Origin: Mobula hypostoma
Taxonomy: Eukaryota
Direction of reading: 5' to 3'
NCBI RefSeq assembly: GCF_963921235.1
Contig: NC_086108.1
Location: 25,482,001-25,546,000 of the forward strand
DNA: 64,000 bases
Each line of letters begins with the position of its first letter. Positions within the stretch are counted from its first letter, which is position 1. Below the pieces are notes generated by a model, which was not told the DNA's origin, did no database searches, and worked only from the letters and a program-made list of their open reading frames with translations. Below, in pieces: positions 1 to 56,598 of the stretch. The translations under genes and the position numbers were made by a program.

Positions 1-653
1 ATTTGGTTCACCCAGTCTACATGTAGATTGAAGTCACCCATTATAACTGCTGTTCCTTTATTGCACACATTTCTAATTTCCTGTTTAATACCATCTCCGA
101 CCTCACTACTACTGTTAGGTGGCCTGTACACAACTCCCAGCAGCGTCTTCTGCCCCTTAGTGTTACGCAGCTCTACCCATATCGATTCCACATCTTCCCG
201 GCTTATGTCCTTCCTTTCTATTGCGTTAATCTCTTTTTTAACCAGCAACGCCACCCCACCTCCCCTTCCTTCGTGTCTATCCCTCCTGAATATTGAATAT
301 CCCTGAACGTTGAGCTCCCATCCCTGGTCACCCTGGAGCCATGTCTCTGTGATCCCAACTATATCATAATCATTAATAACAATCTGCACTTTCAATTCAT
401 CCACCTTATTACGAATGCTCCTTGCATTGACACATAAAGCCTTCAGGCGCTCTTTTACAACTCTCTTAGCCCTTTTTAATGCTTGCCCTGGATTTGTCGG
501 CCTGCCACTTTTACTTTTCCCCTTTGTACTTTTTGCTTCTACGCTCACTTTACACTCCTCTGTCTCTCTGCACTGGTTCCCATCCCTCTGTTGTGAACTA
601 ACCTCCTCACACCTAGCCGCTTTAATTTGATTCCCACCCCCCAACCATTCTAG
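1..653 (-). CDS. CR1 ORF2 N-terminus (APE endonuclease), partial; -1 frame relative to ORF1
   Basis: Manual translation gives ...LKALCVNARSIRNKVDEL...GITETWL...RGGGVALL...GVVYRPP...IMGDFNL. The frame is open from 653 to the window edge, and the first ATG is at 41-39. Confidence 0.88.
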
Positions 654-1411
654 TTTAAAGTCACCTCAGTAGCCCCCGCTAATCTCCCTGCCAGGATATT
701 GGTCCCCCTAGGATTTAAGTGTAACCCGTCCTTTTTGTACAGGTCACACCTACGCCAAAAGAGGTCCCAATGATCCAAAAACTTGAATCCCTGCCCCCTG
801 CTCCAATCCCTCAGCCACGCATTTATCCTCCACCTCATCGCATTCCTACTCTCACTGTCGCGTGGCACAGGCAGTAATCCCGAGATTACTACCTTTGCGG
901 TCCTTTTTCTCAACTCCCTTCCTAGCTCCTTATATTCTTCTTTCAGGACCTCATCCCTTTTCCTACCTATGTCATTGGTACCTATATGTACCAGGACCTC
1001 TGGCTCTTCACCCTCCCACTTCAGGATATCTTGGACACGATCAGAAATATCCCGGACCCTGGCACCAGGGAGGCAAACTACCATCCGAGTCTCTGGACTG
1101 CGTCCACAGAATCGCCTATCTGACCCCCTTACTATCGAGTCCCCTATCACAACTGCCCTCCTCTTCCTTGCCCTACCCTTCTGAGCTACAGGGCCAGACT
1201 CTGTGCCGGAGGCAGGGCCACTGTCGCTTCCCCCGGGTAAGCTGTCCCCCCCAACAGTACTCAAACAGGAGTACCTGTTGTTAAGGGGCACAGCCGCCGG
1301 GGTACTCCTCATCACCTGCCTTTTCCCCTTCCCTCTCCTAACCGTGACCCACTTGTCTGCCTCCCGTGGCCCCGGCGTGACCACCTGCCTTCCACTCCTC
1401 TCTATCACCTC
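650..1411 (-). CDS. CR1 ORF1, partial (SGNH/GDSL esterase domain)
   Basis: Motifs VIGDSIVRG, PGARV, HIGTND and DGLHLN. The N-terminal Zn-finger part is missing. The track's start at 1462 is a TTG in flanking DNA. Confidence 0.88.
   Translation of the reverse strand, partial: EVIERSGRQVVTPGPREADKWVTVRRGKGKRQVMRSTPAAVPLNNRYSCLSTVGGDSLPGGSDSGPASGTESGPVAQKGRARKRRAVVIGDSIVRGSDRRFCGRSPETRMVVCLPGARVRDISDRVQDILKWEGEEPEVLVHIGTNDIGRKRDEVLKEEYKELGRELRKRTAKVVISGLLPVPRDSESRNAMRWRINAWLRDWSRGQGFKFLDHWDLFWRRCDLYKKDGLHLNPRGTNILAGRLAGATEVTLN
653..659 (-). promoter_or_regulatory. Candidate -1 ribosomal frameshift slippery heptamer U_UUA_AAC
   Basis: ORF1 ends ACT TTA AAC TAG. The heptamer is in the correct X_XXY_YYZ phase, and a -1 slip enters ORF2. 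Confidence 0.6.
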
Positions 1412-2661
1412 CAGTGATAGTGGGAGCACTGGCTGTTTAGTGCCCCAGAGAGCATCTGACAAAATATTCTTGTGTTGAATATTATTCTTTAATATTTTTC
1501 AGAATAATAACCAGGTAAGATTTGATTAAATCAGCAGTAAATTGATTTATCCTTGATTTATTAGCTTTAATCACTGCGTCAAAACACCACCTGATCTTAC
1601 ATGACTGAACATGACATACAAAAAAATAGGAAGAAATATTCCTAGCTGTATTGGAATAGAGTTTTTTCTAACAATAATGGTGAACTCCAATATGTTCTGA
1701 AGCTTTTAGTATGTTATTTTTAATGGAAGTAGCTTTATTTTAAAGCCTCCTCAGAAAATGTGTGCAAACAGCAGGAAATCGGGATGATGATTAATCTGAT
1801 ATGGACCTACGATCAGTTTTGTCCGAAGATTCAGCTTCAATCTAGCTCTAAAATTTGCACTATATATGATTGCACTAAAATTACGCAAACCTTTGCAAAG
1901 TGGACACAAATTCAAGGAGAATGGCACTGAAAAAAATAATGCATTTGAGTGGAAACTCCAACTCACAATGTTTTGGTAAAGAAAAATGATGAGACACAGG
2001 GAGGAAAACAAATGTACCAGGTTTTCGGCCAAATTACCCTGGGCTAGGGAATATCATCCACCCACACTTACTGATTCTGGATGCTAATAGAAGAATTCAG
2101 ACTCCAGTCCTAAAGCTCTACCCCAACTCCACCCTTATGGCTTATGACAGCTTGCTGGCTGTGAAAGACTTTTCAACAGTTTTTTAAGATCTTGATGATA
2201 GAGACTTTAAAAATAGATACAATAGTTGTAAATAATTTATAAAAAGTAAAAATGTGAAAAATAGAAAATTCCTTTAACCTTTATTTGCCAATTGCACTTA
2301 TTTTCTGTAGCTAGAATGCTGAATTCTGCATAATATCAGCCTCTTTCCATCAATGCCAAATCCTGCTTAGTTAAATTATATTCCATAAGAGATTAAGTAA
2401 AAACTAGAAGTGCTGGAAATCCTCAAAAAAAAAATAACAGGCAGCACTAGTAGAGGGAAATACATAGGTAATGTTTCAGGTTGATGCTTTTCATCAGCTG
2501 AAGAAGCTTCAATTTTAAATCATTCTCGGACCAGAAATATAGATAGCTATCAAAAATTTCAAGTAGTGTTTAATTTGATGTAGGCCAGTGTCAGCTTTGT
2601 GGCGGGAACCAGTTTCAAGGGTATCATGTTTAAACCAATGCTGAGGATAACACTATACACA

Positions 2662-3615
2662 ATTTAGACAAGATGGGAGAATGCGATTGAAAGGAAAGTG
2701 ACCAGGGCTGAGCTTTGGAAAGCCGAGTCACACCGCATCCAATTTCTCATCCAGGCAGTGTACGATGTGCTTCCAAGCCCATCAAACCTGCACACATGGG
2801 GCAAGGCAGAGTCATCTGCGTGCCCACTGTGCTCCAAGCAAGGAACCCTGGAGCACATCCTCAGTGGCTGTGCAAGGGCACTTGGTGAAGGACGGTACTG
2901 ATGGAGACATGATCAGGTCCTGAAGACCATCGCCAAAGCTGTCAGTGCAGGCGTTGAGTGGGCGAAGCGGTCCCGACCCTCCAAGCAGGTCATTGCCTTT
3001 GTCAGAGCTGGGGAGCAGCCAGTACCCGCCAAAAGAACATCTGCAGGCATTCTGACCTCTGCAAGGGACTGGCAGTTGTTGGTGGACCTCGAACAGCAGC
3101 TGAAGTTCCCCAACCATATCGCAGCCACCACCCTGTGGCCAGACATTGTCCCTGTGTCTGAGTCTACTAAGCAAGTGGTGCTGCTGGAGCTGACAGTCCC
3201 ATGGGAAGATCGCTTGGAAGAGGCCTTTGAAAGGAAGCTCTCCAAGTACGCAGGACTGGTCAGCAACTGTCAGCAGGCTGGATGGAGAGCGAGGTGTCTC
3301 CCAGTGGAGGTTGGTTGTAGGGGATTCGTAGCCCGTTCTTTAGCCAGAGCCTTCAGCATTTTGGGCATCGAGGGAGAGAGGAAGAGGAGAGCCATTCGCA
3401 GTACCACCAATGCGGCAGAGAGGGCCTCAAGATGGCTGTGGCTCACAAGAGGGGAGCCATGGAGTCATAAGTAGCTAGCCATCTGGACACAAGCTGGGGT
3501 CTGATCAGCCCCGGATGGGTCACCTGGAGGAGGTTGTATGATGTTGAAAGACCCGAAACACCCGATGATTCCAGGATCATCATTGAAGGTGTGTCCAGGG
3601 ACATCAGTAGATGTA
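2662..3615 (+). mobile_element. 5'-truncated HERO/NeSL-like (R2-group) non-LTR retrotransposon with restriction-like endonuclease
   Basis: CPLC...TLEHILSGC zinc knuckle, WRHDQVL after a frameshift/stop, then PDIV...LLELTVPWE...KLSKY...VEVGCRGF, and a 3'UTR to about 3615. Possible imperfect TSD tatacaca/tgtacaca. Confidence 0.85.
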
Positions 3616-6650: not shown

Positions 6651-6879
6651 AGGTTCAACCAAAAACCAACTTACTGATTAACACTGTAACAGTGGCATTA
6701 AGAAAAACTAGATTTAAAGTGCATATCCTAATTTGTGAAAAATGGATTGGTAACAAACTACTCCATGTCTGGGGCAAGATAGTGTGATATATTTACTGTG
6801 CTCTTTTTTATTCAAAACTAAAGTATCAAAAATGGTACCATCAGCTACATTATAACTGCCATGCCATGAATCCCTTTGA

Positions 6880-9052
6880 TAGAGTTCCAACATGGATGTG
6901 GAAGGGACAAAATCAGAGCAGTCAGGTCTCTGGCACTGAGTCTGCCTCTGTGATTCAGAAGGGAAGTGGGGAGAAGAGGCATGCTGTAGTAATAGGGGAT
7001 TCGTTAGTTAGGGGAATAGGAAGGAGGCTCTTTAGATGAGAACAAAATTCCCTGATAGTGCCTTCTGGGTGCCAGAGCCAGGAACATCTTGATTTGAGTC
7101 ATCAGCATCCTAAAGTGACAGTGAGCGGCCAGAGGTCGTAGTCCATGTTGGTGCGATACTAGATGTCCTATAGGGAAAGAGACAGGGCAGGTGACACTAG
7201 TTTTTGAAGGGGTACACTTTGTATCTAGTGATCATAATGCCATTGGTTTCAAGGCATTTATGGAAAGGGGTAGGTCTGGTCCTTGGGCCAAGATTCTAAA
7301 TTCTAAAGAAGATATTTTTAAGTCAAGGGATAAATTGGTCCTGTGGAAAATCAGAGTGGTAATCTATGTGTGGAGCTGAGAGAAACGAGGGGGAACTTAA
7401 GTACATTTTTTGCATCTTATTTACTTGGGAGATGGACAAAGAGTCTGTAGAAGTGATGCAAAGCAGCAGCAAGGTCATGGACCCTATACAGATTATAGAG
7501 GAAGTGTTTGCTGTCTTGAGGGAAATTAGGGTAGATGAATGCCCGGGACCTGATATGGTGTCCCCTCAGCGCCTGTAGGAGGGTAGTGCAGAAATTGCAG
7601 GGCCCCTAGCAGAGATAGCCATAGGTGAGGTGCTGGAGGATTGGAGCATAGCTAATGTTGTTCTGTTGTTTAAAAAAGGCTCAAAGAATAAGCCAGGAAA
7701 TTATAGGCCGGTGAACCTGGCATCAGTGGTGGGAAGGTGTTCTAAGGGACCAGATCCATAAGTATTCGGATATACAGGGACTGATTCAGGGTATGGTAGG
7801 GCTTTGTGTATGGTAGGTTGTGTCTAAACATTCTGATTACTTTTCGATAAAGTTGCCAGGAAAGTTCATGAAGGCAAGTCAGTGGATGTTGTCTACATGG
7901 AGTTTATCAAGGCCTTGGACAAAGTCCCGCATGGAAGGTTGATCAAGAAGGTTCAGTTGCTTGGCATATATGATGAGGTAGTAAATTGGATTAAACATTG
8001 ATGTCACAGGATAAGCCGGAGAGAGGTAACAGATGGTTGCCTCTAAGACAGGAGGCCTGTGACTAATAGTGTGCTATAGGGACAGTGCTGGCTCCATTGT
8101 TGTTTGTTGTCTATATCAATGATATGGATGATAATGTGGTAAACTGCATAAGGAAATTTGTGAATGACACCAAGATTGGGGGTGTAGTGGACAGGGAAGA
8201 AGAACATCAAAGCTTGCGGTGGGATCTGGACCAGCTGGAAAAATGTTCTGAAAAAGGCAGGTGGAATTTAATGCAAACAAGTGTGAGGTGTTGTACTTTG
8301 GGACAATGCAACCTGGGTAGGACTTACTCAGTGAGCAGCCGGGCATTGAGTAGTATTGTAGAACAGAGGGATCTGGGACTACAGATCCATAATTCCTAGA
8401 AAGTGGTGTCACAGGTAGAGAGGGTTGTAAAGAAAGCTTTAGGTACATTGCCCCCCATAAATCAATGTATTGAGTACAGGGGTTGGGATGTTATGTTGAA
8501 ATTGTATAAGACTTTGGTGAGGCCTAATTTGGAGTATGGTATGCAGTTTTGATCACCTACCCACAGGAAGAATGAAAACACCATTGAAGGAGTGCAGAGA
8601 AAATTTACAAGGATGTTGCCAAGACTTGAGTTTTAAAAAAGGTTGAATAGATTAGGACTTTATTCCATGGAATGTAAAAGATTAAGGGGAGATTTGATAG
8701 AGGTATACAAATTTACGAGGGGTGTAGATAGGGTAAATGCAGGCAGGCTTTTTCCACTGAGGTTGGGTGAGACAATGACTAGAGGTCACGGGCTAAGGGT
8801 GAAAGGTGAAATGTTTAAGCTGAACGTCTTCACTCAGAGAGTGGTGAGAGTGTGGAACAAGTTGTCAGCTTGTGGTGGATGCAAGTTCAATTTCAACACT
8901 TAAGAGAAATTTGGATAGGTACATGGATGGGAGGGGTATGGAGGGATATGATACAGGTGCAGGTCAATGCAGGTTGATTAATATTTTGGCACAAAATAAA
9001 TGGGCAGAATGTTCTATCTCTATGTTGTAGTGTCCTATGACTCTATGACTCT
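6880..9052 (+). mobile_element. Degenerate, internally deleted CR1 LINE
   Basis: Esterase remnant near 6990-7150, RT motifs (LLFVVYINDMD, KFVNDTKIGG), a CR1-type C-terminus, and a (TATGACTC)n tail at about 9036-9052. Confidence 0.85.
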
Positions 9053-11439
9053 GACAATATTCCTTCAATTGTCAAGGTTCTTGTTTTGCATTTTAATAGA
9101 TTCATTCTATCATTCTATCACAGATGTGTTGGCAGGATCTCCAGTCATACCAAGAAACACTCTTATTTTTCCCTGCCAGCTTCCTTCCTTCTTTTTGTTC
9201 AAATGGGTCTCAGTGGTGAGGTTATCCTGTGTTTTGCCCAAATTACCATTGCTCACCTGTAAGCGTTGGCTGCTAGCTTTGGCATGTGAGTTCGGTTTGA
9301 GAGCACAAATAGACAAGTCACATCCTGCTCTTAAATAACACCTGGGCCTGATACTTCAAACCTCAAGGTAGTATCAACTCAACCTACATTTAGCACGGTG
9401 GTGGTGGAACCGAAAACCTTTCTGCTGTGCAGGCTTAACTAGTTGACAGGTATAGGGTAGATTGCAGGACACTTTTTTTCTCCCCATAAGAGCGTTACAT
9501 AAAACTAGTGGACTTAGATTTAAGGAAGGCGTTAGAGATTTAAAGGGAATCTGAGGGGGGGACATTTTTTTCCTCTAGAGAGTGGTGAGTTGGTGGAATA
9601 CACTACCAGAGAGAGTGGTGGAAGCAGAATCTCTGACGGCATTTAAGAAGAATCGAGATGAACACTTGAATCACTCAGGTACGGAAGGCTGTGGGCCAAG
9701 TGCTGGAAGATGGGAATAATGCAGAAGAGGGCTTATTATTTGGTCAGAATGTGGTGGCCCAAATGGCCTGTTTCCATGTTGATTAATTCTTCTGGCTCCA
9801 TAATTAAACCTAGCTCTACTGTAGGGAAGAACATATTAACTGAGGTTTGACGTAGAATTAATACCAAGACTTCCTATGCTCATAAATGCTGACAGCTGGA
9901 TAAGGCGGTATCTATGATACTATTCCATTGCTGAGGGGTTTACATTATTTTTCCCCTATCTGCCTCAGAGATTGTCTTCTATCAGAGAATATAATTCCGG
10001 GACAGATGAGGGCTTGCTAGATGGAAAGATCAAGGTTTTGTGAATCAGCGTTATAATGCTTCCAGAATGACTAGATGAAGTTCTTGACCAGTTACTTCAG
10101 ACCTCACTTTACCCTCCTTAGCTTATCACTGAGGTGTGTCCATCCCATCTGTCACGCCATCAGCAGCATGGGGATGCTTTGTGTCCCTGTTCGTGTGACA
10201 ATCTCAGTGTCTGAGACCTTAACATACCTTCATAAGTTCACATTAAAGGGCTCCTCTTTTTACTCAGAGGATTGTCACTGTATAACTGAAGTTCCAGATG
10301 AAGTGGTTAATGCAGGTACCTTAAAAACTTTAAAAAAACTAAGACAGGGACGTACTGTAGATAAGAAAAGTTTAGAGCGATTTGGGCCAAATGCTGGCAA
10401 GCAGGACTAAACTCAGGTAGGAATCTTGGTCTGCATGAACCTGTTGGCCTGAAGGACCTATTTCTGTGATATGACTCCTTTGTCGCATGGTGGTTTCAAT
10501 TTCACATGCTGACATCAGGGCTGACCACACAATAGCTTTGTAGATGTTCATTACTTACTTGTTTACCTTGGTGCTTTGATTTGGAATTGTTATAAAAATC
10601 CATTAGAGTAAGTTGTTGGCGTGACCAAAGCATGATTCCTGATCCATGGCTAGCTGGTGGCCTCTTGGTTTCCTTCCAAACAGTTCAAAGGTCAATACTG
10701 GCAACTGGTGTACCCAGTACAGCTTGGCTTCAGTAAAACTTTCTAAGGAGCAGGTAAATATGACTTCACAATTACTGTCAATCAGTCTCAGGTGGTACTC
10801 GCACAATGCATGCTAATAAGCACAATTGGGACTAGTGAGATAAAAATTGGGGTTCATGAGCAAGCCACACTAACACAAGGGTCTCTTACATGCTGTGATT
10901 TCAGTGCAATCACATACTTAGGTTAGTGAATTGATTCACGTAAGGGAAAGGTGGGCACACAAGTGAGAAAAAAATTGAGGGAATAAGTTTAGGTAATGTA
11001 GTAGGCAGAGAGGTCTGTGTAAAACATAAACTGCCACAGACCTAATGCACCAAAAGAAGTGGATCAGTGATGGAAATGCCATGTAATTTTCATGTAAATT
11101 GGTAGTCATATTCCAGCCCAAATGTGGCATTTATTAGCAATGCACAACTGGGTATGGATCTGGAAACACTAATCCCAGCTCTTTTGTAATCAGGGTGGAA
11201 AATACTCCCCCCTCCTGACTATATTCAGTTCCTGGATACAATAAACTTTTAAAAAATATTATCTTTCCCTAATTCACTAAGAATTTCATTAATTTGACAG
11301 TGAATTGCTTCTTCTGCATGTATTTATATTTCAAACATATGGCACATTAATTATAGATTTTTTTAACAGATGATTCCTTCCGAAGCAGGTAACAGATGTC
11401 TTGCTTCCATTATTTCTCACACTTCCTCATGAAAGGAAA

Positions 11440-14087: not shown

Positions 14088-17000
14088 TAATTAATGGCAG
14101 ACCAATCAATTCGAAGAGAGAGATAACTTCACACGGGTCGGGGAGAAAAGTTTTAAAAAGGAGCGTTTTGCGGGGCTTAGCGCATTAGAATAGTGGGTAT
14201 GACTGCAAGGCCAATTTTCTGTTCTGGGAGTCAGATGGGGGATGTCTGGGAGACTTCCAACCTCCTTGATGGCCACATCTGCGCCAGGTGTATCGAGTTA
14301 CAGCTCCTCAGAGACCAAGTTAGGGAACTGGAGCTGCAACTCAATGACCTTGTTAGGGAGAGTGAAGAGGTGATCGACAGGAGCTACAGGCAGGTAGTCA
14401 ACCTGGGGCCACAGGAGACTGATAAGTGGGTGACCATCAGGAGAGGGAAGGGAGGGCGACAGGTAGTGAAGAGCACATCTGTGGTTGTCCCCCTTAACAA
14501 TAAGTACTCCATTTTGAGTGCTGTTGGGGGGGGGGGGGACCTACCTGAGAGAAGCAGCAGTGGCACTGTGTCTGGCCCTATGGCTCAGAAAGGTAGGGAA
14601 CGGAAGAGGATGGCAGTAGTGATAGGGGACTCTATATGTAGGGAGACAGATAGGCAATTCTGTGGACACGAAAAATAAACCCAAGTTCATGATGTTTCTG
14701 AGCGCGTCTACAATATCCTGAAATGGGAGGGTGAGCAGCTAGAGGTCTAGGTACATATTAGTACCAATGACATAGGTAGAAAAAGGGTGGAGGTCCTGAA
14801 AGAAGAATTCCGGGAGTTTGGAAGGAAGCTGAGACACAGGACCTCAAAGGTGGTAATCTTGGGATTGTTGCCTGTGCCATGCGACAGTGAGTATAGGAAT
14901 AGAATGAGGTGGAGGATAAATGCGTGGCTGAGGGATTGGAGCAGGGGGCAGGGATTCAGATTTTTGGATCATTGGGACCTCATCTGGGGCAGGTGTGACC
15001 TGTACAAAAAGGATGGGTTGCACTTGAATCTGGGGGGGGACCAATATCCTGGCGGAGAGGTTTGCTGAAGCTATTGGGGAGAACTTAAACTAGATTTGCA
15101 GGGGGGTGGGAACCGAAGTGAAGAGGCAGAGGATGGGGTGGTTGGCGCACAAATAGGGACAGCTTGTAGGGTGTTTGTGAGGAAGGATAGGCAGATGTTA
15201 CAGCAAAGATGCACTCAGCCTGATGGTTTGAGATGTGTCAATTTTAATGCAAGGAGTATCATAAACAAGAGCATAGATCAATATGTGGAACCGTGATGTT
15301 GTGGCCATTACATTGTGGATGACTCAGGAGTAGGAATGGCTGCTGAGTGCGCCAGGCTTTAGATGTTTCAAAAAGAACAGAGTGGGAGGCAAAAGAGGTG
15401 GGACTGTGGCATTGTTAATTAGGGATAGTGTCACGGCTGCAGAAAAGGAGGAAGTCATGCAGGGATTGTCTACTGATTCAGTGTGTGTGGAAGTCAGAAA
15501 AAGGAAAGCAGCAATAACTCTGCTGGGTGTTTTTTATAGACGTCCCAATAGTAACAGGGATGTCGAAGAGCATATAGAAAGGCAGATTCTGGAATGGTGC
15601 AATAATAATAGGGTTGTTGTAATGGGAGATTTTAACTTTCCTAATATTGACTGGCATGGGTGGAGCTTGTTATGTGTGTTCAGGAGGTTTTCTGTCACAA
15701 TATCCAGATAAGCCGACTAGAGCAGAGGCTGTACTTGATATGGTATTTGGAAATGAACCTCGTCAGGTGTCAAATCTCTCGGTGGGAGAGCATTTTGGAG
15801 GTAGTGACCACAAATCTACCTCCCTCACCGTTGCGCAGGAGAGGGATAGGAGCAGACAATCTGGGAAAACATTTAATTGGGGTAGGGGGAAATATGATGC
15901 TATTAGGCATGAACTTGGAAGCATGAATTGGGAGCAGATGTTCTCAGGGAACTGCACGGCAGTAATGTGGCATACATTCAGGGAACATTTGCATGGAGTT
16001 CTGCATAGATATGTTCCATTGAGGCAGGGAAAAGATGGTAGAGTTAAAGAACCATGGTGTACAAAGTATGTAAAAAATCTAGTTAAGAGGAAAAGAAAAG
16101 TTTATGAAAGGTTCAAGAAACTAGGTACTGTTGGAGCTCTGGAAAATTACAAGGTTACAAGGAATGATCTTAAGAATGGAATTAGAAGAGCCAGAAAGGG
16201 CCATGAGAAGGTCTTGGTGAGCAGGATTAAGGAAAACCCCAAGGCATTCTACAAGTACGTGAAGAGCAAGAGGATGAGTCATGTGAGAATAGGACCAATC
16301 AGGTGTGAAAGTGAAATGTGTGCATGGAGTCAGAGGAGGCAGCTGAGATACTTAATGAATACTTCGCTTCAGTATTCACTAGGTAAAAAGACCTTGGCAA
16401 TTGTGGGGAATGCTTACAGCAGACTGAAACGCTTGTGCATATAGATATCAAGAAAAAAGATGTGCTGGAGCTTTTGAAAAGCATTGAGTTAGATAAGTCA
16501 CTGGGACTGGATGATATATACCCCAGGCTACTGTGGGAAGTGAGGGAGGAGATTGCTAAGCCTCTTGCGATGATGTTTGCATCATCAATAGGGACAGGAG
16601 AAGTACCAGAGGATTGGAGGTTTGCAAGTGTTGTTCCCTTTTTCAAGAAAGGGAGTAGGGATAACCCGAGAAATTATAGACCAGTGAATTTGACTTCAGC
16701 AGTGGGCCAGTTGTTGAAGAAGATCCTGAAAGGCAGGATTTATGAGCACTTGGAGAGACATAATCTGATTAGGACTAGTCAGCATGGCTTTGTCAAGGGC
16801 AGGTCGTGCCATACAAGCCCGATTAAATTCTTTGAGAAAGTAACAAACACATTATTGGAGGTAGAGCAGTAGATGTAGTGTATATGGATTTCAGCAAGGC
16901 ATTTGATAAGGTACCCCATGGAATGCTTATGAGAAAGTAAGGAGGCATGGGATCCAAGGGGACCTTGCTTTGTGGATCCAGAACTGGCTTGCCCACAGAA

Positions 17001-19260
17001 GGCAAAGAGTGGTTGTAGATGGTTTGTATTCTGCATGGATGTCGGTGACTAGTGCTGTTCCACAGGGATCTGTTCTGGGAACTCTCCTCTTTGTGATTTT
17101 AATAAATGACCTGCATGAAGAAGTAGAAGGGTGGGTTAGTAAGCTTGTTGATGACAGAAAGGTTGGGGGTGTTGTGGGTAGTCTGGAGGGTTGTTAGAGT
17201 TTACAGCAGGACATCAGAAGGATGCAGAACTGGGCTGAGAAGTGGCAGATGGACATCAACCCAGATAAGTTTGAAGTGGTTTAGTTTGGTAGGTCCAATT
17301 TGAAGACAGAATATAATATAAATGGTAAGATTCTTAGCAATGTGGATAGTCTGAGAGATCTTGGGGTCCATGTCAATACGACACTGAAATCTGCTGTGCA
17401 GGTTGACAGTGAGTGTTGCTAAGAAGGCATATTGTGTGTTGGCATTCATCAACCGTGGAGCTGAGTTTAAGAACGTGAGGTAATTTTATAGATATAAAAG
17501 ACCTTGGTCAGACCCCACTAGGAGTGCTGTGTTCAGTTCTGGTCACCTCATTACAGGAAGGATGTGGATACTATAGAGAGAATGCAGAGGAGATTTACAA
17601 GGATGTTGCCTGGATTGGAGGGCGTACCTTATGACAGCGGTCCCCAACCACCGGGCTGCGGACCGGTACCGGGCCACAAAGCACGTGCTAACGGGCAGCG
17701 AGGAAACGATATGATTTGGTGATATGAGTCAGCTGCACCTTTCCTCATTCCCTGTCATGCACTGTTGAGCTTGAACGCATGCGAGGTCATTACTCATGCG
17801 TCATCCATGTCAGCACGCGAAGGAGGTCAACTCCTCAAGCTTGCAAATGACGAAGGGCTGAGAAGTATGTTTGACATAACATCTCTGCCGGCATTCTGGA
17901 TCAAAGTCAAGGCTAAATATCTTGAGATAGCCATGAAATCACTGAAAATGTTGCTTCCATTTCCAACATATCTCTGTGAAGCGGGCTTTTCTGCAATGAG
18001 TGCAACGAAAACTAAATTGCGGAATAGACTGGACATAAGGAACCCCGTTTGAGTATCGCTGTCTCCCGTCACCCCTCGATAGGACCGGCTTGTTGAAGGG
18101 AAACAAGCCCAGGGCTCCCACTGATTCACCGATATTGGTGTGTTGCAATGATTTTATATGTTCATACGGGGAAATTATGTGCTGTGTGTTTAATATCCAA
18201 ACATTACTTAAAATGTTATGATGCTATTGACTTATAAGTGACTTTTATAACCATATAACAATTACAGCATAGTAACAGGCGATCTCAGCCCTTCTAGTCC
18301 GTGCCGAACTCTTACTCTCTCCTAGTCCCATCGACCTACCCTCAGCCCATAACCCTCCATTCCTTTCCTGTCCATATACCTATTCGTTCAACACTTACTT
18401 CAGGCTCCCCTGTCCTCCCCTGATAATTGACTTATCACTATATTCATGCAAGGAAAATATGCGCTGTGTGTTTAATATTAAATTCGTTAGATAAACCCTT
18501 TTAGAAATGAAATTGAGTGCATTAGCCACTTATCAACTATATTCCGGTCATGATTAACCACCCCCCCCTCGCCCCGATCAGAATCACAAAAAATGATTTG
18601 TAGGAAATAATCGGCACATACATGCATGCGCACTGGTGCCTGTGCAAGGCTTCATGGTCATTGTAGTCTTTCTCGGGGTAAACACTTTGTATTTGACAGC
18701 TACTCTTCTCTGTTGGCAACCCTACCACGCCCCCCACCCCCAGGTCGGCCGGTCCGCAAGAATATTGTCAATTGTCAATATTAAACCGGTCCGCAGTGCA
18801 AATTAGGTTGGGGTCCCCTGCCTTATGAGAATAGGTTGAGTGTACTTGGCCTTTTTCTCCTTGGAGCAACGGAGGATGAGAGGTGACCTGATGGAGGTGT
18901 ATAAGATGATGAGGGGCATTCATCGTGGGAATAACTAGAGGCTTTTTCCCAGGGCTCATATTGCTAACACGAGGGGGCATAGTTTTAAGGTGCTTGGAAA
19001 TAAGTACTGAGGGGATGTCAGGGTAAGTTTTTCACACAGAGAGTAGTGGGTGCATGGAATGCACTGCTGGTGATGGTGTTGGAAGCGGATACAATAAGGT
19101 CTTTTAAGAGCCTCTTAGATAGGTACATGGAGCTTAGAAAAATAGAGGGATATGCGCTAGGAAGTTCTAGGCAGTCTCTAGAGTAGGTTACGTGGTCGGC
19201 ACAACATTGTGGGCCAAAGGGTCTATAATGTGCAGTAAATTTCTGTGTTCTATGTTCTGT
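14088..19260 (+). mobile_element. Near full-length frameshifted CR1 LINE, interrupted by a hAT element and nested in an older CR1
   Basis: ORF1 has a Cys motif (HICARC), a Leu-rich coil and an esterase. ORF2 has APE (NARS, YRRP, GDFN, SDH) and RT (QHGF, PQGSVLG). It ends in a (TTCTATG)n-like tail. Older CR1 sequence continues on both sides. Confidence 0.92.
17635..18820 (+). mobile_element. Non-autonomous hAT (Charlie/Buster-type) element, copy 2, with a transposase C-terminal fragment
   Basis: TIRs CAGCGGTCCCCAACC / GGTTGGGGTCCCCTG and a perfect 8-bp TSD CCTTATGA (17627-17634, 18821-18828). Dimerisation-domain fragment FWIKVK...LLPFPTYLCEAGFSAM...KTKLRNRL. Confidence 0.93.
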
Positions 19261-25100: not shown

Positions 25101-25480
25101 ATCTACTTGTATACTATTCTCAGCCCGACCACTCTGGTTCCCATTCTCTTGCCAAATTAGTTTTAACTCTCCCCAATAGCTCTAGCAAACCTGCCCGCAA
25201 GTATATTGTACACCCTTGGGTTCAGGTGTAACCTGTCTCTTTTGTACAGGTCACACCTTCCCCAAAAGAGATCCTGGTGATCCAGAAATCTGAAACCCTA
25301 CCCCCTGTACCAGTTCCTCAGCCGTGCATTCTTTTGCCAAATCATCCTGCTCTTACCCTCAATGGCCAGTGGCACAGGCAGTAATCCAGAGATTACTAAC
25401 CTGGAGGTTCTGTATTCCAGCTATCCACCTAACTCCCTAAAATCTCACTTCAGGACTTTTTCCCTTTTCCTACCTATGTC
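22185..25480 (-). mobile_element. Degenerate CR1 LINE (end of ORF1 through 3' tail)
   Basis: Esterase C-terminus at 25170-25480, and APE and RT remnants (LNKYFASVFT, LEYCEQFWAP, RNFFSQR). Confidence 0.88.
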
Positions 25481-28642: not shown

Positions 28643-29925
28643 GTATTTCAATAGCTCTTTTACATATATGTTTTGCTCCATTTGGAACCTGTCTTTGATT
28701 CATTTGTTGTAAGATTCCACAAACTAAGTGATCTTTCAGTGCACCATTAAGCTGATCATTGAACTGAAAATGCTCAGACAGCTTCTTCAATTCAGCCACT
28801 TATACTGAAACTTATTGAATGGTGAAAGGTTTTGATGGAGTGGATGTGGGGAGGATGTTTCCTATGGTGAGGGAGTCTAAGACCAGAGGACAAAGCCTCA
28901 GAATAGAGGGGTGTCCTTTTAGAACAGAGATGAAGAGGAACTTCTTAAGTCGGGGAACGGTAAATCAATGGAACTCTTTGCCACACGCAGCTGTGGAGGC
29001 CAAGTCTTTAGGTATATTTAAGACAGAGGTTAATAGATTCTTGATTGGTCAGGGCATGAAGGGGTATGGATAGAAAGCAGGAGATTGGGGATGAGTGATA
29101 AATTGGATCAGTCACGATGAAATGACCGAGCAGGCTTGATGGGCCAAATGGCCTAATTCTGCTCCTATATTTTATGGTCTTATGGTCCAATGGAAACATA
29201 GTCCTGATTCTTTTGCTTCTGCTTATTACACCTAAAGTGTTTTGCAATCAACTATGATTTCAGTTCTAATAATTCCTGCTCACTTCAACTGGTTTGGCTG
29301 GAGCAGTCAAATTCCTAAGAAAACTGTATGCTTTTTCACCCAATGCACTCAGCAAAACTGCTACTCATTGGCTATTTCATTTGCTTCAAAATTCTGCATG
29401 TTTTGCTCAGTATACAATATCCAGTTATCTGTTGTGTGATCAAACACATTCATCTTTCTGATGTAGCCAGCCATTTCTGTCTTTTTGCTTTATCAGCTGT
29501 TACTCACTGTTTATGAAGCCGTAAAATCTTTAGTTTTCTGTCTTCTTTTAAAACTCAACTGTCTTTCCTTTTAAACTCAACCGTTTCATTGCACTTTTTA
29601 AATCTCAAATATCTTGCTGTGCTTCAACAGGTAGGTAATCATCTCAGGTTCATTTAAATCTTTCTCACTGCCAGTGTTATGTTTTGTAACTCCATAAATT
29701 AAACTGATCGAAAGAAAGTCAAGAGAGCCAAGAGATGTATGATTGAATTTAGTTATTTTTTTGTAATTTAAGCTAGGCACGTGCATTTATTGCTGTGATG
29801 TGATGATGTGTACCATTCATGTATTTCGCTCATGTAACCATAACGAATTATACAACAAAAATGCTTAATCAAACAACATGTTTGCATATTAGTCAAATAT
29901 TACTGAAATGTTTAATGCACAAAGC
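28643..29925 (-). mobile_element. Truncated old Gypsy element (5' LTR at about 29675-29925 plus gag remnant)
   Basis: AELKKLSEHFQF...LKDHLVCGI. The LTR is homologous to 47976-48175 and 62595-62837, and ends CATAACA followed by a PBS-like TGGCAGTGAG. Confidence 0.78.
28813..29186 (+). mobile_element. CR1 3' fragment inserted in Gypsy gag
   Basis: RTEMKRNF...WNSLP...IFKTEVNRFL and a (TTATGGTC)n tail. Confidence 0.82.
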
Positions 29926-29929
29926 ATCA

Positions 29930-31350
29930 GAGGTAGAAAGGGTTGTAAGAAAGCTTTTGGCATACTAACCTTCACAAATCAATATATTAAGTACAGGAGT
30001 TGGGAGGTTATGTTGAAATTGTACAAGACATTGGTGAGGCTGAATTTAGAGTATTGCGTGCAGTTTTGATCAACTCCCTACTATATAGAAAAGATGTAAA
30101 TAAGATCAGTAGAGCTACTAGGAGTTGATGTTTCAATCCCTATGGTAAATTGGCACTTTCGATGTTGGCAGTGGGTTTGGAGTGGTGACAAGGAGGGAGG
30201 GTAGGTATGTCATTGGGGTCATCAAGTGGGCACCCTCCTTCTTTGACGTTTCGTTGATAAACCCACAACGTCTCCAGAGGGCTCAGTGGTGCTACCTGGT
30301 GTCCCAGAGACACCCACTTCAGTTCCATACCCTCCTGTCTTCATCTTGCAGCCCAGTTGTTGCCTTTCCTTTTAATCCAACTCCAATTGCTGCTTTCTTC
30401 TGCTGCGTTAGACATGGACTTGATTGCTTGTTGGAGGGAGTGACCCCTCACCCCTATCTTCCTCAATAGATGGTCGTAGATGTAGCAACGAATCCCCTGC
30501 ATCCCACTTCTACAGGGGAAATCTTGGTCTTCCAGACATTCTGGGCAGCTTCAGTTGCCAGTTCAGTGTACCTGGTCTTTTTCCTCTCATAAGCTTCTTC
30601 GACACTATCTTCCCATGGTACTGTCAATTCCACAACATATGCCAGCTTGGCTGCTGTGGACCACAGGACCATGTCTGGCCGGAGTGTTGTAGCTACAATG
30701 TCTGGGGGAAACACAAGCTTTTTTTACAAGTCCATGTCTATTTTCCAATCCCGAGCAACCTGCAGAATGCTTACATCTTTTGATGTTATATGGTGCTCTG
30801 GAGGTTGGCCTGCTGATACAAATCGCGTAATGTGGACATTTCCTGCCAATGTTTGTGGGAGAGCATTTGTGATGATTCGCCTCTGTTCCAAGAGTGCAGA
30901 GAAAATTTACAAGGATGTTGCTGGGACTTGAGGTACTGAGTTATAGGGAAAGGTTCAATAGGTTAGGACTTTATTCCTTAAAACATAGAAGATTGAGGGG
31001 AGATTTGATAGAGGTATACAAAATCTTGAGGTATATAGACAGGGTAAATACCAGCAGGCTTTTTCCACTGAAACTGTGTGAGACTACAACTAGAGGTAAT
31101 GAGTTAAGGGTGAAATGGTTAAAGGGAACATAAGGGGAAACTTCTTCACTCAGAGGGTGGTGAGAGTGTGAAACAAACTGTTAGTGCAAGTTGTAGATGC
31201 AGGTTCGACTTCAAAATTTAAGAAAAGATTGGATAGGTTCCTGTACATAGATGGGAGGGGTATGGAGGACTATTGTCTGGGGGCAGGTTGATGGGACTAG
31301 GCAGATTAATGGTTTGGCTTATTTCTGCACTGTAGTGTTCTATGACTCTA
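29930..31350 (+). mobile_element. CR1 3' fragment split by a HERO-like insertion
   Basis: ...gatgtaaataagat resumes as agagtgcagagaaaatttac (QRKFTRML...RGDLIEVYK). Ends in a TATGACTC tail. Confidence 0.8.
30105..30890 (-). mobile_element. Second 5'-truncated HERO-like RLE retrotransposon (different subfamily)
   Basis: FPPDIVATTLRPDMVLWS...VELTVPWE...KKTRY...PVEVGCRGFVA. Confidence 0.83.
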
Positions 31351-33574: not shown

Positions 33575-34830
33575 TTCAATGTTGTTGGATTCAAAATTGG
33601 CTCAGCAGGGGAAACCAAAGCTGGCAGTAGATGGTTGCCTCTCTGACTGGCAGTGTGCCACAGGGATCAGTTCTGGGTCCATTGTTGTTTGTCATCTATA
33701 TTAACGATCCACATGAAAATACAATAAACTGGATCAGTAAATTTGCAGATGACACCAAGATTAGGGGTGTAGTGGACAGCAAAGAAAGCCATCAAAGTTT
33801 GCAGTGGAATCTAGACCAGCTAGAAAAATAAGCTGGAAAATGACAGATGGAATTTATTGCAGTCAAGTGTGAAGTGTTGCACTTCAGGAGGACAAAATAG
33901 GGTAGGACTGACACAACAAATGATGGAGCACTGCAGAGTTTGGCAGAACAAAGGGTTCTGGGAATATAGGTCCATAATTCTTTGAAAGTGGAATCTTAGG
34001 TGGATAGGGTCAAGAACATAGAACATAGAACAATACAGCACTGGAATAGGACCTTCAACCCACAATGATGTGTCAAACCAATTAAATTAGGATTCAAGTA
34101 GCTTATTAAACTAATCTCTTCTTCTTATACAATGTGCATATCCTTCCATATTCCTGTTTTCATGTGTCTATCTCAATGTCACTTGAGCTCTCTAATATTT
34201 ATGAATCTGCCACCACCTCAGGCAGTGCAGTTCAGACACCACCACTCTGTGCAAAAAATCTTGCCCCTCACATCTCCTTTGAAGTTGCCTACTCTCACCT
34301 TGAATGCATGCCCCCTATTGTTAATTATTTCAATGCTTGGAAAATGAGTTTGTCTGTCTACTTTACCAATGCTTCTCAGTGTCGTATAAACCTTCCTCTG
34401 ATTTGCCCTCAGCCTCTGCCGCTCCACAGAAAACAAACCCAAATTTGTCCAACATGCCCTCAAATCCAGGTAACATCCTGGTAAACCTCTTCTGCACTCT
34501 TTCCAAAGCCTCAAGATCGTTCCTATAATGAGCCCACCAAAATTGGCTGCAATACTCCAGATGTGGCCTAACTGGAGTTTTATAAAGCTACAAATAGAGC
34601 TTTTATAGGGTTATATATAGAGCTTTTGGCACATTTGCCTTCATACAGTAAATCAACGTATTGAGTACAGGAATTAGGATGCTATATTGAAGTTGTGAAC
34701 GAAGTTGGTGAGGCCTAATTTGGAGCATTGTGTGCAATTCTGGTCATCAACCTACAGGAAAGGTGTCAATAAGATTGAAAGAATACAAAGATAATTTAGA
34801 AAGATGTTGCCAGGACTGAAGAATCTGAGG
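33575..34830 (+). mobile_element. CR1 RT fragment with an antisense CR1 3' piece nested at about 34013-34590
   Basis: [18 protein letters not shown]...KFADDTK. The nested piece begins with (AGAACAT)n, the reverse complement of the CR1 tail. Confidence 0.75.
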
Positions 34831-34859
34831 CATTTGGAGGTACATACTTGGCTGAAGTT

Positions 34860-35477
34860 ACCATGGTTTCCTTCAGGGGAAATTTTGTCTGACAAATCTG
34901 TTGGAATTCTTTGAGGAACAGGCAGGATAGATAAAGGACAGTCAGTGGATGTTGTTTACTTGGATTTTTAGAAGAGTTTTATTTAAAGCACATGGTACGA
35001 TGGTATTAAATGAAAGATACTAGTATGGATAGAAGACTGGCAGGAGGCAAAGAGTGGGAATAAAAGGGGCTTTTTCAGGTTGGCTGCCAGTCACTAGTGG
35101 CATTCTATAGGAGTTCTTTATGTATTATATGTCAATGATTTGCATAACAATATTGATATCCCTATGCCCAAATTGGCAAAAAGGAAATGAACAGATTAGC
35201 AAAATGGACAAATAAGTTGCAGTTGAAATACAGTACAGAGAAGTGTATGGTCATGCACTTTGATAGAAGGAGTAAAAGCATAGACTGTTTTCTAAATGTG
35301 GAGAAAATTCAGAAATCAGAGGTACAAGAGAATGAGCAAGATTTCCCAAAGGCTAACTTTCAGGTTGATTCGGTAGTAAGGAAAGCAAACACAATGTTAT
35401 CATTCATTTTGAGAGGGGTCGAGTATAAGAACAAGAATGCAATGAAGAGGCTTTGTAAGTCATTGGTCAGGCTGCAT
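34860..35477 (+). mobile_element. Degenerate CR1 RT fragment that resumes at 38669-38735 after the Rex1 insertion
   Basis: ...LVRLHL | EYCEQF... is continuous across the insertion. Confidence 0.75.
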
Positions 35478-38400
35478 TTAGATTAGATTAGATTAGATTC
35501 ATCTTTATTGTCATTGCGCTGAGTACAGATACAAAGCCAATAAAATGCAGTTAACATCTGACCAGAAATGCAAAGAATAGTGTTATTTACAAAATAACTG
35601 CAAATGAAAAGTAAGTGCTACAGCACACAAATATAAAAGTACTGAGACAGTACAATATTGGTGCAATACTGCTTAGCGCTGTGATGTAAGGTTCAGCAGG
35701 GTTACGGCCTGAGGGAAGAAGCTTTTCCTGTGCCTGCTGGTGCGGGAGCGGAGGCTCCTGTAGTGCCTACCAGATGGAAGGAGAGTAAAAAGTCCATGGT
35801 TAGGGTGAGATGCATTCTTGATAATGCTTTTCACCCTGCCCAGGCAGCGTTTATGGTAGATGTTCTCAATGGTGGGCAATTGGGTGCTGATAATCCGCTG
35901 GGCAGTTCTCACTACATGCTGGAGTGCTTTGCGGTCTAATATGAGACTATGCCATACCACACTGAGATGCAGTTGGTGAGTATGCTCGTATACTCTCAAT
36001 GGTACAGCGGTAAAAGTCTGTCAGTATCCTGGGACAGAGGTGAGCTTTCTTGATGCTCGGCAGGAAATAAAGGTGCTGTTGCGCCTTTTTGATCAGGATG
36101 GAGGAGTTCAGGGACCAGGTGAGATCCTCGGAAATGTGGACACCAAGGAATTTGAAGCTTGATACACGCTCCACTACAGCTCCTTTGATGTAGATGGGGA
36201 CGTGAGTGTGGCTCCTAGCATGCCTGAAGTCCACAACGATCTCCTTGGTCTTCTGGGTGTTAAGGGCCAGATTGCTGTCGGCACACCACGCGGCCAGATG
36301 CTGGACCTCATCCCTGTAGGCCGTCTCGTCATCCCCTCTGATCAGGCCAACCACCCTGGTGTCGACTGCAAACTTGATTATGGAGTTAGAACCATGTACA
36401 GGAACGCAGTCATAGCTGAAAAGGAATTACAGAAGAGGGCTCAGCACACAGCCTTGAGGCACGCCGGTGTTCAGGGTGAGAGTGGAGGAGGAGAGGTTGT
36501 CTATCTGAACTGATTGGGGTCTGTTGGTCAGAAAGTCCAAGGTCCAATTGCAGAGGGATGAACTGATACCAAGCCGGTGAAGTTTGACGATCAGCTTGGA
36601 GGGGATCACAATATTGAATGCCGAACAAAAGTCAATGAACAGCATTCTGATGTAAGAGTTGGGGCTGTCCAGGTGGGTCAGGGCAGAGTGAAGTGCTGTG
36701 GAGATGGCGTCCTCTGTTGACCTGTTGGTGCAATAGGCAAATTGATGGGGGTCCAGGGTAGTGGGCAGACAGGATTTCTGATGTGGTAGAACTAGTCTCT
36801 CAAAGCACTTTGCAATGATGGGGGTGAGGGCAACTGGGTGGAAATCATTCAGGCCCGTGGCAGTGGAATGCTTTGGCACTGGCACAATGGAGGTGATCTT
36901 GAAGCTTATGGGGACAACTACCTGGACCATGGACAGATTAAAATTGTCCATGAAGACCCCGGCCAACTGCCCTGCACAGATGCTGAGCACACAGCCAGGT
37001 ATTCCATCCAGACCAGCTGCCTTCTGTACATTCACCCTGCTCAGGGTGGCGCAAACATCGGAGGTGGAAAGTGAGAGAGACAGTTCACCAGGTGGGAGAT
37101 CCACTTTGAGGGTGACCTCCTTGTTCTCTCAGTCAAAGCGATCATAGAAGTAATTGAGCTCATCAGGGAGGAAAGCAGAGCTGGAAGCGGGCACAGTACT
37201 AGGTGGTTCGAAGTCTCTAATGACTGGTATGCCTTGCCACATGTGCTGGGCGTCTGAGGAGTTGAAATGCTCCTCGATTCTCTGTTTGTATATGTGTTTA
37301 GCCTGAGAGATTCCCCTCCTCAGGTTGGCCCTGGCTGAGCTGTAAGCCTCCCGGTCTCCAGACCTGAAGGCTGAATCTCTGGCTTTGAGCAGGAAGCGAA
37401 CTTCTCTGTTCATCCATGGTTTCTGATTGGGAAAACATTTATTTGTTTTTGTGATGTCACCCTATCTACACACTTGTTGATGTGCTCAAGGACAGAGTTG
37501 GTATATAAATAGATGTTAATCAGAGAGTCTGTGGTGGCACGGGCAGCAAACGCTCTCCAGTCTGTGTGCTGGAATTGGTGCTGAAGAGCAGAGTCAGCAC
37601 CCTCCAGCCAGATCTTAATAGTCTTCATTGTGGGTTTCACACGTTTAGTGACCCGGCTATACTTGGGAAACAGAAATACTGAAAGATGTTCAGACTGTCC
37701 CAGGTAGGGGAGGGTAGTGGTTTTGTAAGTGTCAGCCACATTTGTGTAGACATAATCGAAGGTTTTATTACCCCTTGTGGTGCATGATACATTTTGGTAA
37801 AATCTTGGAAGCACGGTACGTAGGTTACAATGATTAAAGTTCCCAACAACAATAAAGGCTCCGTCTGGATGAAATGTCTGCAGCTTGCTAATAGCGGCAC
37901 TGAGGTCTTTCATGGCTACTTTAGCGTTAGCATCCGGTGGAACATAAACTGTGACAGTAATGATGCTTGTAAACTCTCGAGATTGGTAAAAAGGTCTACA
38001 CTTAATAATTAGGTATTCCAGATCAGCAGAGCAATAAGTGTCAGCAATAGTAGAGTTAGTGAACCATGATTGATTCACGTAGATGCATAAACCACCTCCC
38101 CTACTTTTACCTGTCGCTTTTGCAGCTCTGTCAGCTCTGAAGACCCTGCGCCCTTCCAGTTCCACCACGTTGTTTGGGACATCACTGTTTAGCCACGTCT
38201 CCATAGAAATACATGATGTTGCAACCTTTAAGCCTTCTTTGTATAAGGGTCCAAGTCCTTAGTTCGTCCAGCTTGGTCATCAGAGACCGAACATTGGCGA
38301 GGAAGATGCTAGGTAGCGCTGGATGGTGTGGATTTAGCCTTAGTTTAGCATGCAAACCTCCACGCTTCCCCCATCTTTGTTTACGGTCTCGGCACCGGGC

Positions 38401-52083: not shown

Positions 52084-52410
52084 TGGCACAGACATAGAGC
52101 TGCATCCTCACTGGGCCAGGGACCTGGGTTCATTCCCGACTTTGGGTGCTAACTTCCTGTGACTGCCAGAGTTTCCTTCCTGTGCTCTGCTACCCTCCCA
52201 CATCCCAATGACATGCAGGTTGGTAGGTTAATTAGCTGCTGTAATGTGTTACTCGTGTACAGGTGAGTGGCAGACTTCAGGAGGAAACTGGTTAAAATGT
52301 GAGGTGAATGAGGTAAAATGGAAATTAACAATGGCCTAGTGCAGCTGATGGCCACCACAGACTCTGTACACTAAATGACCTGTTTCATGCAGCATTTCTC
52401 TATAACTAAT
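52084..52410 (+). mobile_element. V-SINE / HE1-like SINE
   Basis: B-box-like GGTTCATTCCC, the V-core CCTCCCACATCCCAATGACATGCAGGTTGGTAGG, and a CR1-type tail. Confidence 0.62.
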
Positions 52411-52644
52411 CGAGTCTACCCAACTGATCACCCGGCTCTCTCAATGTGATGACTGCCATCGTAATCAATGTGTGAGGGTAACACTGGCTTTGCGTGGCAT
52501 TTCAATCAAAATGTGAAGTGTGAAAATATTTGACTCTCCACACCCAAAAACAAAAAAGAAAATGCTGGAGGAACTCAGCAAGCCAGGAAAAGAGTACAGT
52601 TGACGTTTCAGGCCGAGATGTACTGGTTAATTGGTCTTTGTAGT

Positions 52645-53017
52645 TTGTCAATGGACAATAGACAATAGGTGCAGGAGTAGGCCATTTGGCCTTTCAAGCC
52701 AGCACCGCCATTCACTGTGATCATTGCTGATCACCCACAATCAGTATCCAGTTCCTGCCTTATCCCCATAACCTTTGATTCTGCTATCTTTAAAAGCTCT
52801 ATCCATCTCTTTCTTGAAAGCATCCAAAGACTTGGCCTCCACAGCCTTCTGGGGCAGAACATTCCATATATCCACCACTCTCTGGGTGAAAAAGTTTTTC
52901 CTCATCTCCATTCTAAATGGCCTACCCTTTATTCTTAAACTGTGGCCTCTGGTTCTGGACTCACCCATCAGCGGGAACATGCTTCCTGCCTCCAATGTGT
53001 CCAATCCCTTAATAATA
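52645..53017 (-). mobile_element. 3' end of a CR1 split by the Penelope-like insertion
   Basis: IIKGLD...RKNFFTQRVV...GY*, with an (ATTGTCT)n-type tail. Confidence 0.88.
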
Positions 53018-53119
53018 TGGCGTTCACCAGCAACTTTGATGTGTGTTGCTTGAATTTCCAGCATCTGCGAATTCCTGTTGTTTGCATTTAAATTCACTAC
53101 TGCGAAGTCTCTTCCGGTG

Positions 53120-56499: not shown

Positions 56500-56598
56500 C
56501 ACCTCTTCCTACAGATGCTGCTTGGCCTGCTGCGTTCACCAGCAACTTTGATGTGTGTTGCTTGAATTTCCAGCATCTGCAGAATTCCTGTTGTTTGC

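Follow-up and report, generated by a model that had tools for sequence, protein, structure and literature searches.

Translation of the second open reading frame (ORF2) of long interspersed nuclear elements (LINEs) is a long-standing question, and for human L1 the answer has been "an unconventional mechanism". In passages of a 2013 review (PMC3894237) ORF2 initiation in elements without long terminal repeats (non-LTR elements) is called unresolved, and SART1 is reported to use a UAAUG stop-start overlap together with a downstream structure. Passages of a recoding review (PMC5009743) describe L1 ORF2 translation as independent of its AUG. In the Dictyostelium elements TRE5-A and TRE3-A, two ORFs overlap and the second, encoding an apurinic/apyrimidinic endonuclease (APE) and a reverse transcriptase (RT), is said in passages of PMC5911963 to need a −1 frameshift. 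The same logic of an abundant upstream protein and a rare polymerase fusion is found in coronavirus ORF1a/1b and retroviral Gag-Pol, and passages of two sources give U_UUA_AAC as the coronavirus heptamer (PMC8499926, PMC5009743). The present analysis concerns the junction between ORF1 and ORF2 of a young CR1-type LINE of Mobula hypostoma, a copy of which begins a 64,000-nucleotide (nt) stretch of contig NC_086108.1 (positions 25,482,001 to 25,546,000, forward strand; "the window"). CR1 is the dominant retrotransposon of most vertebrate species, as stated in passages of the survey PMC13343379. The junction is probably a site of programmed −1 ribosomal frameshifting that joins the two products.

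Like TRE5-A and TRE3-A, the Mobula element is an APE-type non-LTR element with overlapping ORFs and ORF2 in the −1 frame; the Dictyostelium elements differ in their amoeba host, unrelated ORF1, tRNA-gene targeting and oligo(A) end. The likeness noted here is one of layout. With the coronaviruses it shares the heptamer itself. Coronavirus and Gag-Pol sites, however, carry a pseudoknot or hairpin 5-9 nt downstream, whereas here none was predicted and an immediate zero-frame stop is followed by a run of G residues. SART1 and human L1 are likewise LINEs whose ORF2 lacks a normal scanning-dependent start, but the AUG close to the stop does not match the ORF2 frame in the young Mobula family, whose ORFs show a −1 overlap and whose conserved feature is a canonical slippery heptamer. 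The features of the window copy are as follows.

1..1412, minus strand: young CR1-type LINE copy, 5′-truncated, running off the window start (blastn against the full-length copy L031).
653..1412, minus strand: ORF1 remnant, C-terminal 253 codons, SGNH/GDSL esterase (Pfam Lipase_GDSL_2, E 3.3e-16).
666..668, minus strand: TGA closing the −1 frame just upstream of the heptamer (sequence, ORF list).
653..659, minus strand: slippery heptamer T_TTA_AAC in ORF1 phase (X_XXY_YYZ), predicted −1 frameshift site (sequence).
650..652, minus strand: ORF1 stop TAG, directly 3′ of the heptamer (sequence).
646..648, minus strand: third-frame ATG just after the stop, 8 codons, ending at TAA 624-622 (sequence).
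633..646, minus strand: G-rich tract GGTTGGGGGGTGGG, from 6 nt after the heptamer, with core GGGGGGTGGG from 10 nt after it; candidate stimulator.
447..665, minus strand: ORF2-frame spacer, 73 codons, basic, Ser/Lys-rich, without ATG (translation).
3..446, minus strand: AP-endonuclease domain of ORF2, N-terminal part (Pfam Exo_endo_phos).
39..41, minus strand: ORF2 codon 209, its first in-frame ATG, within the endonuclease domain (translation).

On the minus strand ORF1 ends ...GAG GTG ACT TTA AAC TAG. The −1 frame is open from the TGA at 668-666 to the window edge (3..665, 221 codons); the opening of the ORF2 frame precedes the heptamer by two codons. Because any change of frame is bounded by this TGA on one side and the TAG at 652-650 on the other, it is confined to 13 nt, and these 13 nt contain the heptamer in phase. 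Given the base composition of the element, the chance of such a heptamer was about 0.0018 per in-phase position, or about 0.005 for the three in-phase positions of the interval. In the 4741 nt of the element TTTAAAC is found a single time, and the 312 ORF1 codons scanned contain no other in-phase XXXYYYZ (Y = A or T). The young family has no in-frame AUG for 208 codons of ORF2, and the NARS and ETW motifs, at about codons 80-109 of the ORF2-frame translation, precede the first one. The sequence after the heptamer is UAGAAUG with its AUG in the third frame, so the SART1-type UAAUG overlap is absent; a near-cognate UUG lies just after the stop, at ORF2 codon 8. A first-pass annotation of this DNA had proposed the arrangement, and its placement of the slippery site in phase at 659-653 held to the base, as did its account of a −1 frame running stop-free into the endonuclease, of a first ORF2 AUG at 41-39 beyond NARS and ETW, and of a wrong-frame AUG at 648-646. 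Its listed ORF1 frame (650..1498) had to be shortened: the copy is truncated at about 1412, and 1413-1498 (about 86 bases) is flanking DNA.

This layout is not a product of decay. The window copy extends to 3865 bp in the genome, where full-length copies measure 4741 bp, and blastn of the reversed window copy (L033) against the full-length L031 gave 99.85% identity over 3865 nt (L031 3704-7568). Two full-length copies, L031 and L032, were 99.83% alike over 4741 nt. Both have a complete ORF1 of 311 residues from the first Met, which 5′ truncation has removed from the window copy, and ORF2 spans 1006 codons in each of the three. When the genome was searched with a 281-nt junction query, all 40 scored copies (the best 40 of 1519 first-look candidates) were 100% identical to it. 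The 5′ ends of 30 fetched copies lay at differing distances upstream of the anchor (0 to more than 1475 nt), which is the LINE pattern of 5′ truncation. Since copies are near-identical and their ORFs intact, the overlap layout is that of working elements: overlapping ORFs and an AUG-less ORF2 are the arrangement of elements that moved very recently. Near-identical pieces of the family also occur under several organism labels, as runs of 14 coded labels contain 16-68% of the sampled 31-letter words of window 200-1300.

By its domains and termini the element fits as a typical member into the CR1 clade with an esterase-type ORF1. Full-length ORF1 matched Lipase_GDSL_2 (Pfam, E 2.9e-16) and the "ORF1-encoded protein" of PDB 4c1b (E 2.3e-28); its N-terminal translation, where the clade has a zinc-finger and leucine-zipper region, reads CCSRC...YICAKC followed by ELELQLDDLRL, and that part had no Pfam match. 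ORF1 is tentatively read, from its translation, as a zinc-finger-like N-terminus, a coiled coil and an SGNH esterase. The 1006-residue ORF2 contains Exo_endo_phos (Pfam, E 3.5e-12) and a central RVT_1 (E 3e-33); the remainder of ORF2 beyond the endonuclease part, RVT_1 included, falls before the window start. CR1 elements characteristically finish in short direct repeats of an octamer and lack poly-A. L031 ends in such repeats without poly-A, ...TTTTCTATGTTTCTATGTTTCTA, at the point where similarity between copies stops. The assignment to CR1 was made through the junction, which is near-identical to rows named CR1 in the portion of the PMC13343379 consensus library covered and is the only link of the RT to that name. 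The same ORF1/ORF2 plan, with an SGNH esterase, AP endonuclease and RT, and an octamer 3′ end, characterizes the vertebrate esterase-ORF1 CR1 LINEs (type IV of Metcalfe and Casane; passages of PMC13343379; the ZfL2-1 esterase 4c1b), whose Cys-rich/coiled-coil N-terminus the Mobula ORF1 appears to share, and no structural difference from them was found. The full-length 5′ untranslated region carries tandem repeats of about 173 bp, seen as blastn self-offsets (L031:2828-3368; L032:2480-3495), whose number differs between L031 and L032. L032 itself lies inside a satellite-looking tandem array (L032:1538-2074 and 7976-9319) whose translation repeats "...TVSDGTVSIQVDTVCSE...".

Conservation of the heptamer and of its phase, the comparison that the first-pass annotation had put forward, was examined at increasing distance. 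A Pfam-guided genome search yielded 30 copies (L034-L063) from subfamilies whose identity to the young family ranges from 98 to 83%. The heptamer was exact in 28 of these and the TAG in 29. Both features persist in L055 and L058, the copies furthest removed from the young family, although there the flanks differ, the upstream TGA reads TGG and the post-stop ATG is gone (AATTG). Two older CR1 families lie in the window itself, 61-66% identical to the young family in ORF1 protein and about 30-40% in the endonuclease.

14199-19156, plus strand: older CR1 family 2 (ORF1/ORF2 protein comparison).
15084..15093, plus strand: family 2 junction, CTTAAAC TAG, mutated from the majority TTTAAAC TAG; ORF2 in the −1 frame.
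25504-22295, minus strand: still older CR1 family 3 (ORF1/ORF2 protein comparison).
25157..25166, minus strand: family 3 junction, TTAAAAC TAA, mutated from the majority TTTAAAC TAA; ORF2 in the −1 frame.

Both window copies of the older families thus carry a mutated heptamer; among 29 other copies of each family TTTAAAC was exact in 23 (family 2) and 20 (family 3), so that it is the majority state in every family group. The majority junctions read GGT TTA AAC TAG in family 2 and GGT TTA AAC TAA in family 3, neither with the post-stop ATG. Between the majority states of the families the heptamer was identical in 7 of 7 positions, the 30 nt upstream in 17-26, and the 7-nt spacer after the stop in 3-5; the 12-nt G-run downstream was identical in 11-12 positions. 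From heptamer to endonuclease the −1 frame of the majority states contained no stop over 79 codons (family 2) and 85 codons (family 3), against 6 and 9 stops in the other two frames of the former and 12 and 10 in those of the latter. It was closed 5 codons before the heptamer in both, and in all families examined the ORF2 frame thus becomes open shortly upstream of the slippery site. More distant esterase families were sought in the genome with PF13472 and none appeared: all 150 scored hits of 29,326 candidates, and six low-scoring ones that were fetched, belonged to the same family group.

Two further observations were made on the subfamily copies. ORF2 of L055 and L058 is interrupted by an in-frame TGA 10 codons past the heptamer; the corresponding library row reads CGA at this place, and the change has the look of CpG decay in copies that are dead. 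In subfamilies about 94% identical to the young family (L059 and further copies among L034-L063), the ORF2 spacer is 27 nt longer owing to an insertion at about 230 nt past the heptamer (827 aligned letters instead of 800), whose length, a multiple of three, would fit a translated linker.

Across vertebrates, the consensus library in Supplementary Table 2 of PMC13343379 was covered for the first 400 letters of each row, a scope that holds for all library results given here. TTTAAAC followed by a stop stood at the end of an esterase-type ORF1 in at least 17 rows named CR1 from 11 species, as follows.

Alligator (alligator), 2 rows.
Crocodylus (crocodile), 3 rows.
Pogona (bearded dragon), 1 row, with TGA as the stop.
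Aquarana (bullfrog), 1 row.
Latimeria (coelacanth), 1 row.
Amia (bowfin), 1 row.
Callorhinchus (elephant shark), 1 row.
Scyliorhinus (catshark), 2 rows.
Squalus (dogfish), 3 rows.
Hypanus (stingray), 1 row.
Pristis (sawfish), 1 row.

One Crack row also had TTTAAAC with a stop; in HypSab_CR1-13 and ScyCan_CR1-14 the motif was cut or gapped, and four further TTTAAAC matches elsewhere in their rows looked like chance. Phase was judged by eye in a few rows: AllMis_CR1-6a reads ...RLADLIRRALN-stop, and ScyCan_CR1-1a reads ...GEGLN-stop if one G is missing in the upstream G-run. In every family the stop directly follows the heptamer, as TAG, TAA or, in the one lizard row, TGA, and this adjacent stop is the invariant neighbour of the heptamer besides the G-run.

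The pattern of conservation points to selection on the nucleotides U_UUA_AAC, beyond a mere Leu-Asn end. Judged by eye in the library rows and the families here, the codon before UUA is GCU, GGU, ACU, AGU, GAU, UGU or CUU (Ala, Gly, Thr, Ser, Asp, Cys and Leu), and its third position is always U. The element has 124 Leu codons, of which 21 are UUA, and 53 Asn codons, of which 18 are AAC; U fills the third position in 64 of 311 codons. Keeping Leu-Asn as the protein end would therefore not be enough to predict the heptamer. It is because the third-position U is constant across seven amino acids, and UUA and AAC are fixed though minority codons, that selection is placed on the nucleotides.

The other conserved element of the junction is the G-run. 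Its 12-nt core (GGGGGGTGGGAA or GGGGGATGGGAA) stands out from the flanks in the family comparison given above. A G-run such as GGGGGATGGG or GGGGAGGGG starts 6-10 nt after the heptamer in most of the 17 rows from the library, SquAca_CR1-17a being without one. The Gly codons across it are GGG in all families, which hints at constraint on the RNA. A two-layer G-quadruplex 6 nt after the heptamer was predicted in the young family and family 3, not in family 2, and a quadruplex is one possibility for the stimulator. A stimulator formed by Watson-Crick pairing was also considered and was dropped, the folds matching their shuffled controls.

The mechanism favored by these comparisons, and judged probable, is programmed −1 frameshifting at the junction to give an ORF1-ORF2 fusion. 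Most ribosomes would terminate at the UAG and release the ORF1 protein (ORF1p). In a minority, the tRNA-Leu and tRNA-Asn paired with UUA and AAC would shift by −1 and pair with UUU and AAA instead, and the slipped ribosomes would read on CUA GAA UGG... The predicted product is a fusion of about 1313 residues, ...EVTLN-LEWLGGG..., consisting of the esterase, the basic 73-codon linker, the endonuclease and the RT in the manner of Gag-Pol. Such a mechanism would fix a low ratio of ORF2 to ORF1 and would tie the enzyme to its encoding RNA. Putative stimulators are the stop next to the heptamer and the conserved G-run that lies 6-10 nt past it; the G-run might act as a G-quadruplex, through a bound protein or by contact with the ribosome. 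As proposed by the first-pass annotation, this frameshift reading gained support from comparison, with both of the computational tests, conservation of the heptamer in its phase and absence of an in-frame AUG ahead of the endonuclease in the young family, turning out in its favor.

Several results weigh against it. Among 24 sequencing runs, all in contig form and 18 of them presumptively RNA, none is listed as an RNA run with the element. Folds of 73 and 123 nt after the heptamer were no better than shuffles (z −0.27 and −0.37), and the predicted quadruplex is a two-layer one, present in two of the three families. The lack of a predicted structured stimulator lowers the case for a canonical signal, not for a frameshift. 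An in-frame AUG (K/R-Q-M), located 38 codons past the heptamer, is conserved in families 2 and 3 and the L055/L058 type, and in 3 of the 17 library rows (ScyCan_CR1-1a, SquAca_CR1-17a and SquAca_CR1-6c) the stop forms UAAUG with the AUG in the ORF2 frame. The expectation that no in-frame AUG would precede the endonuclease thus stood for the young family and failed for its older relatives and these three shark rows; a lineage may combine the slippery and UAAUG routes to ORF2 or may have exchanged one for the other. In the spacer from heptamer to AUG, families 2 and 3 differ at 4, 9 and 9 sites by codon position, with 3 synonymous and 13 non-synonymous codon changes, and so give no clear coding signature. 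Only library rows starting near the junction are informative, so that the 17 rows have no denominator; no bird row was visible in the first 400 letters. AllMis_CR1-1b and CroPor_CR1-3a have a consensus TGA in the expected ORF1 frame 8 codons upstream, tentatively attributed to an indel (insertion or deletion) among low-confidence letters. Finally, human L1 ORF2 can be translated not only without its AUG but also without frameshifting, according to passages of PMC5009743.

The last point leads to the strongest alternative, termination-reinitiation or AUG-independent initiation, in which 40S subunits stay on the RNA after the UAG and restart nearby in the −1 frame to make a separate ORF2 protein (ORF2p). 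The restart codon would be non-AUG in the young family, where the UUG at ORF2 codon 8 is available, and AUG where one is present, and the G-run may hold the ribosome or bind a factor. SART1 and L1 provide precedents, and what the first-pass annotation had said of them agrees with the passages cited at the outset (PMC3894237 and PMC5009743). The three UAAUG rows, the conserved AUG before the endonuclease in the older families and the unremarkable folds all speak for it. Restarting would, however, leave unexplained the strict preservation of U_UUA_AAC, down to its third positions, in contrast to the changeable UAAUG and other AUGs. The stop-adjacent AUG of the young family is in the wrong frame and not conserved, which leaves this active family without an AUG that it could use; in every family the −1 frame is already open at the heptamer, far ahead of the internal AUG that is conserved. 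A motif 7-20 nt past the stop would, moreover, lie inside the terminating ribosome. Calicivirus-type tethering motifs are not known to sit there. On this balance reinitiation is considered unlikely, albeit the most serious competitor of the frameshift.

Conservation of the heptamer for a reason other than translation, as an RNA or DNA motif or as a required Leu-Asn C-terminus, with ORF2 expressed in another way, would fit the conservation of the ORF1 C-terminus as protein (61-66% between families) and the exchange of ORF1 modules between lineages described in passages of PMC4120745, which could carry the junction along. The constant third-position U before seven amino acids and the fixed UUA and AAC run counter to this explanation, as does the position of the motif exactly where the −1 frame opens, and it is judged very improbable.

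Least credible of all is translation of ORF2 from a different RNA, whether spliced, edited, polymerase-slipped or made from an internal promoter, in frame with an upstream AUG: it was considered because multi-copy elements make many RNA forms and found no support, a corrective indel would have to fall within 13 nt whose longest homopolymers are T3 and A3, contigs of four runs (X1, X5, X9 and X10; not proven RNA) listed no indel at a share of 5% or more in those 13 nt, and the conserved in-phase heptamer would be a coincidence. In the contigs over 450-900, none of the 40 best-supported of 72 differences fell in 627-662, the nearest being at 623, 626, 663 and 666, and the only listed indels were at 710 and 713; contigs of this kind cannot reveal rare variants, transcription or translation.

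A bolder form of the frameshift reading, put forward tentatively and regarded as doubtful in its full extent, is that all canonical jawed-vertebrate CR1 LINEs would make their endonuclease-RT only as an ORF1p-ORF2p fusion at U_UUA_AAC. Frameshifting would be driven by the stop and a short linear G-run 6-10 nt downstream rather than by a pseudoknot, the G-run acting via a host protein, ORF1p or a minimal G-quadruplex.

The kind of frameshift is known, being Gag-Pol-like and −1. Here it would operate in a major vertebrate LINE clade and in an unusual, apparently structure-poor context. In its first 300,000 characters the recoding review PMC5009743 names only HeT-A, TART and L1 among non-LTR elements. 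The word "frameshift" does not occur in passages of the CR1 survey (PMC13343379), the ORF1 study (PMC4120745), the esterase structure paper (PMC3905857) or the 2013 review (PMC3894237), and passages of the first three mention neither an overlap nor a slippery site. Full-text literature searches, whose scope did not extend to the CR1 papers of the 1990s or to Kapitonov and Jurka 2003, returned no description of a CR1 slippery site.

Elsewhere the window is dense in CR1 debris. CR1-like RT fragments with 27-80% protein identity to the young ORF2 lie at 6848-9707, 28807-31255, 33586-37455 and 51089-61222, most of them 5′-truncated and without the junction. At 2664-3474 open frames overlap on both strands, and a 190-residue plus-strand frame among them, containing "...LELTVPWEDRLEEAFERKLSKY...", looks like the remnant of another mobile element.

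For the CR1 clade, the frameshift reading predicts an esterase-endonuclease-RT fusion of about 150 kDa and changes the annotation of ORF2 starts in CR1 libraries. The conserved, canonical slippery site makes the question of CR1 ORF2 translation answerable by a quick reporter experiment. If the G-run is the stimulator, a very short, non-pseudoknot enhancer would be added to the known set of frameshift signals. Should the bolder form hold for the jawed vertebrates, a compact stimulator would have been kept for more than 400 million years, setting the ratio of ORF1 to ORF2, and the fusion would explain both cis-preference and why the esterase travels with the RT.

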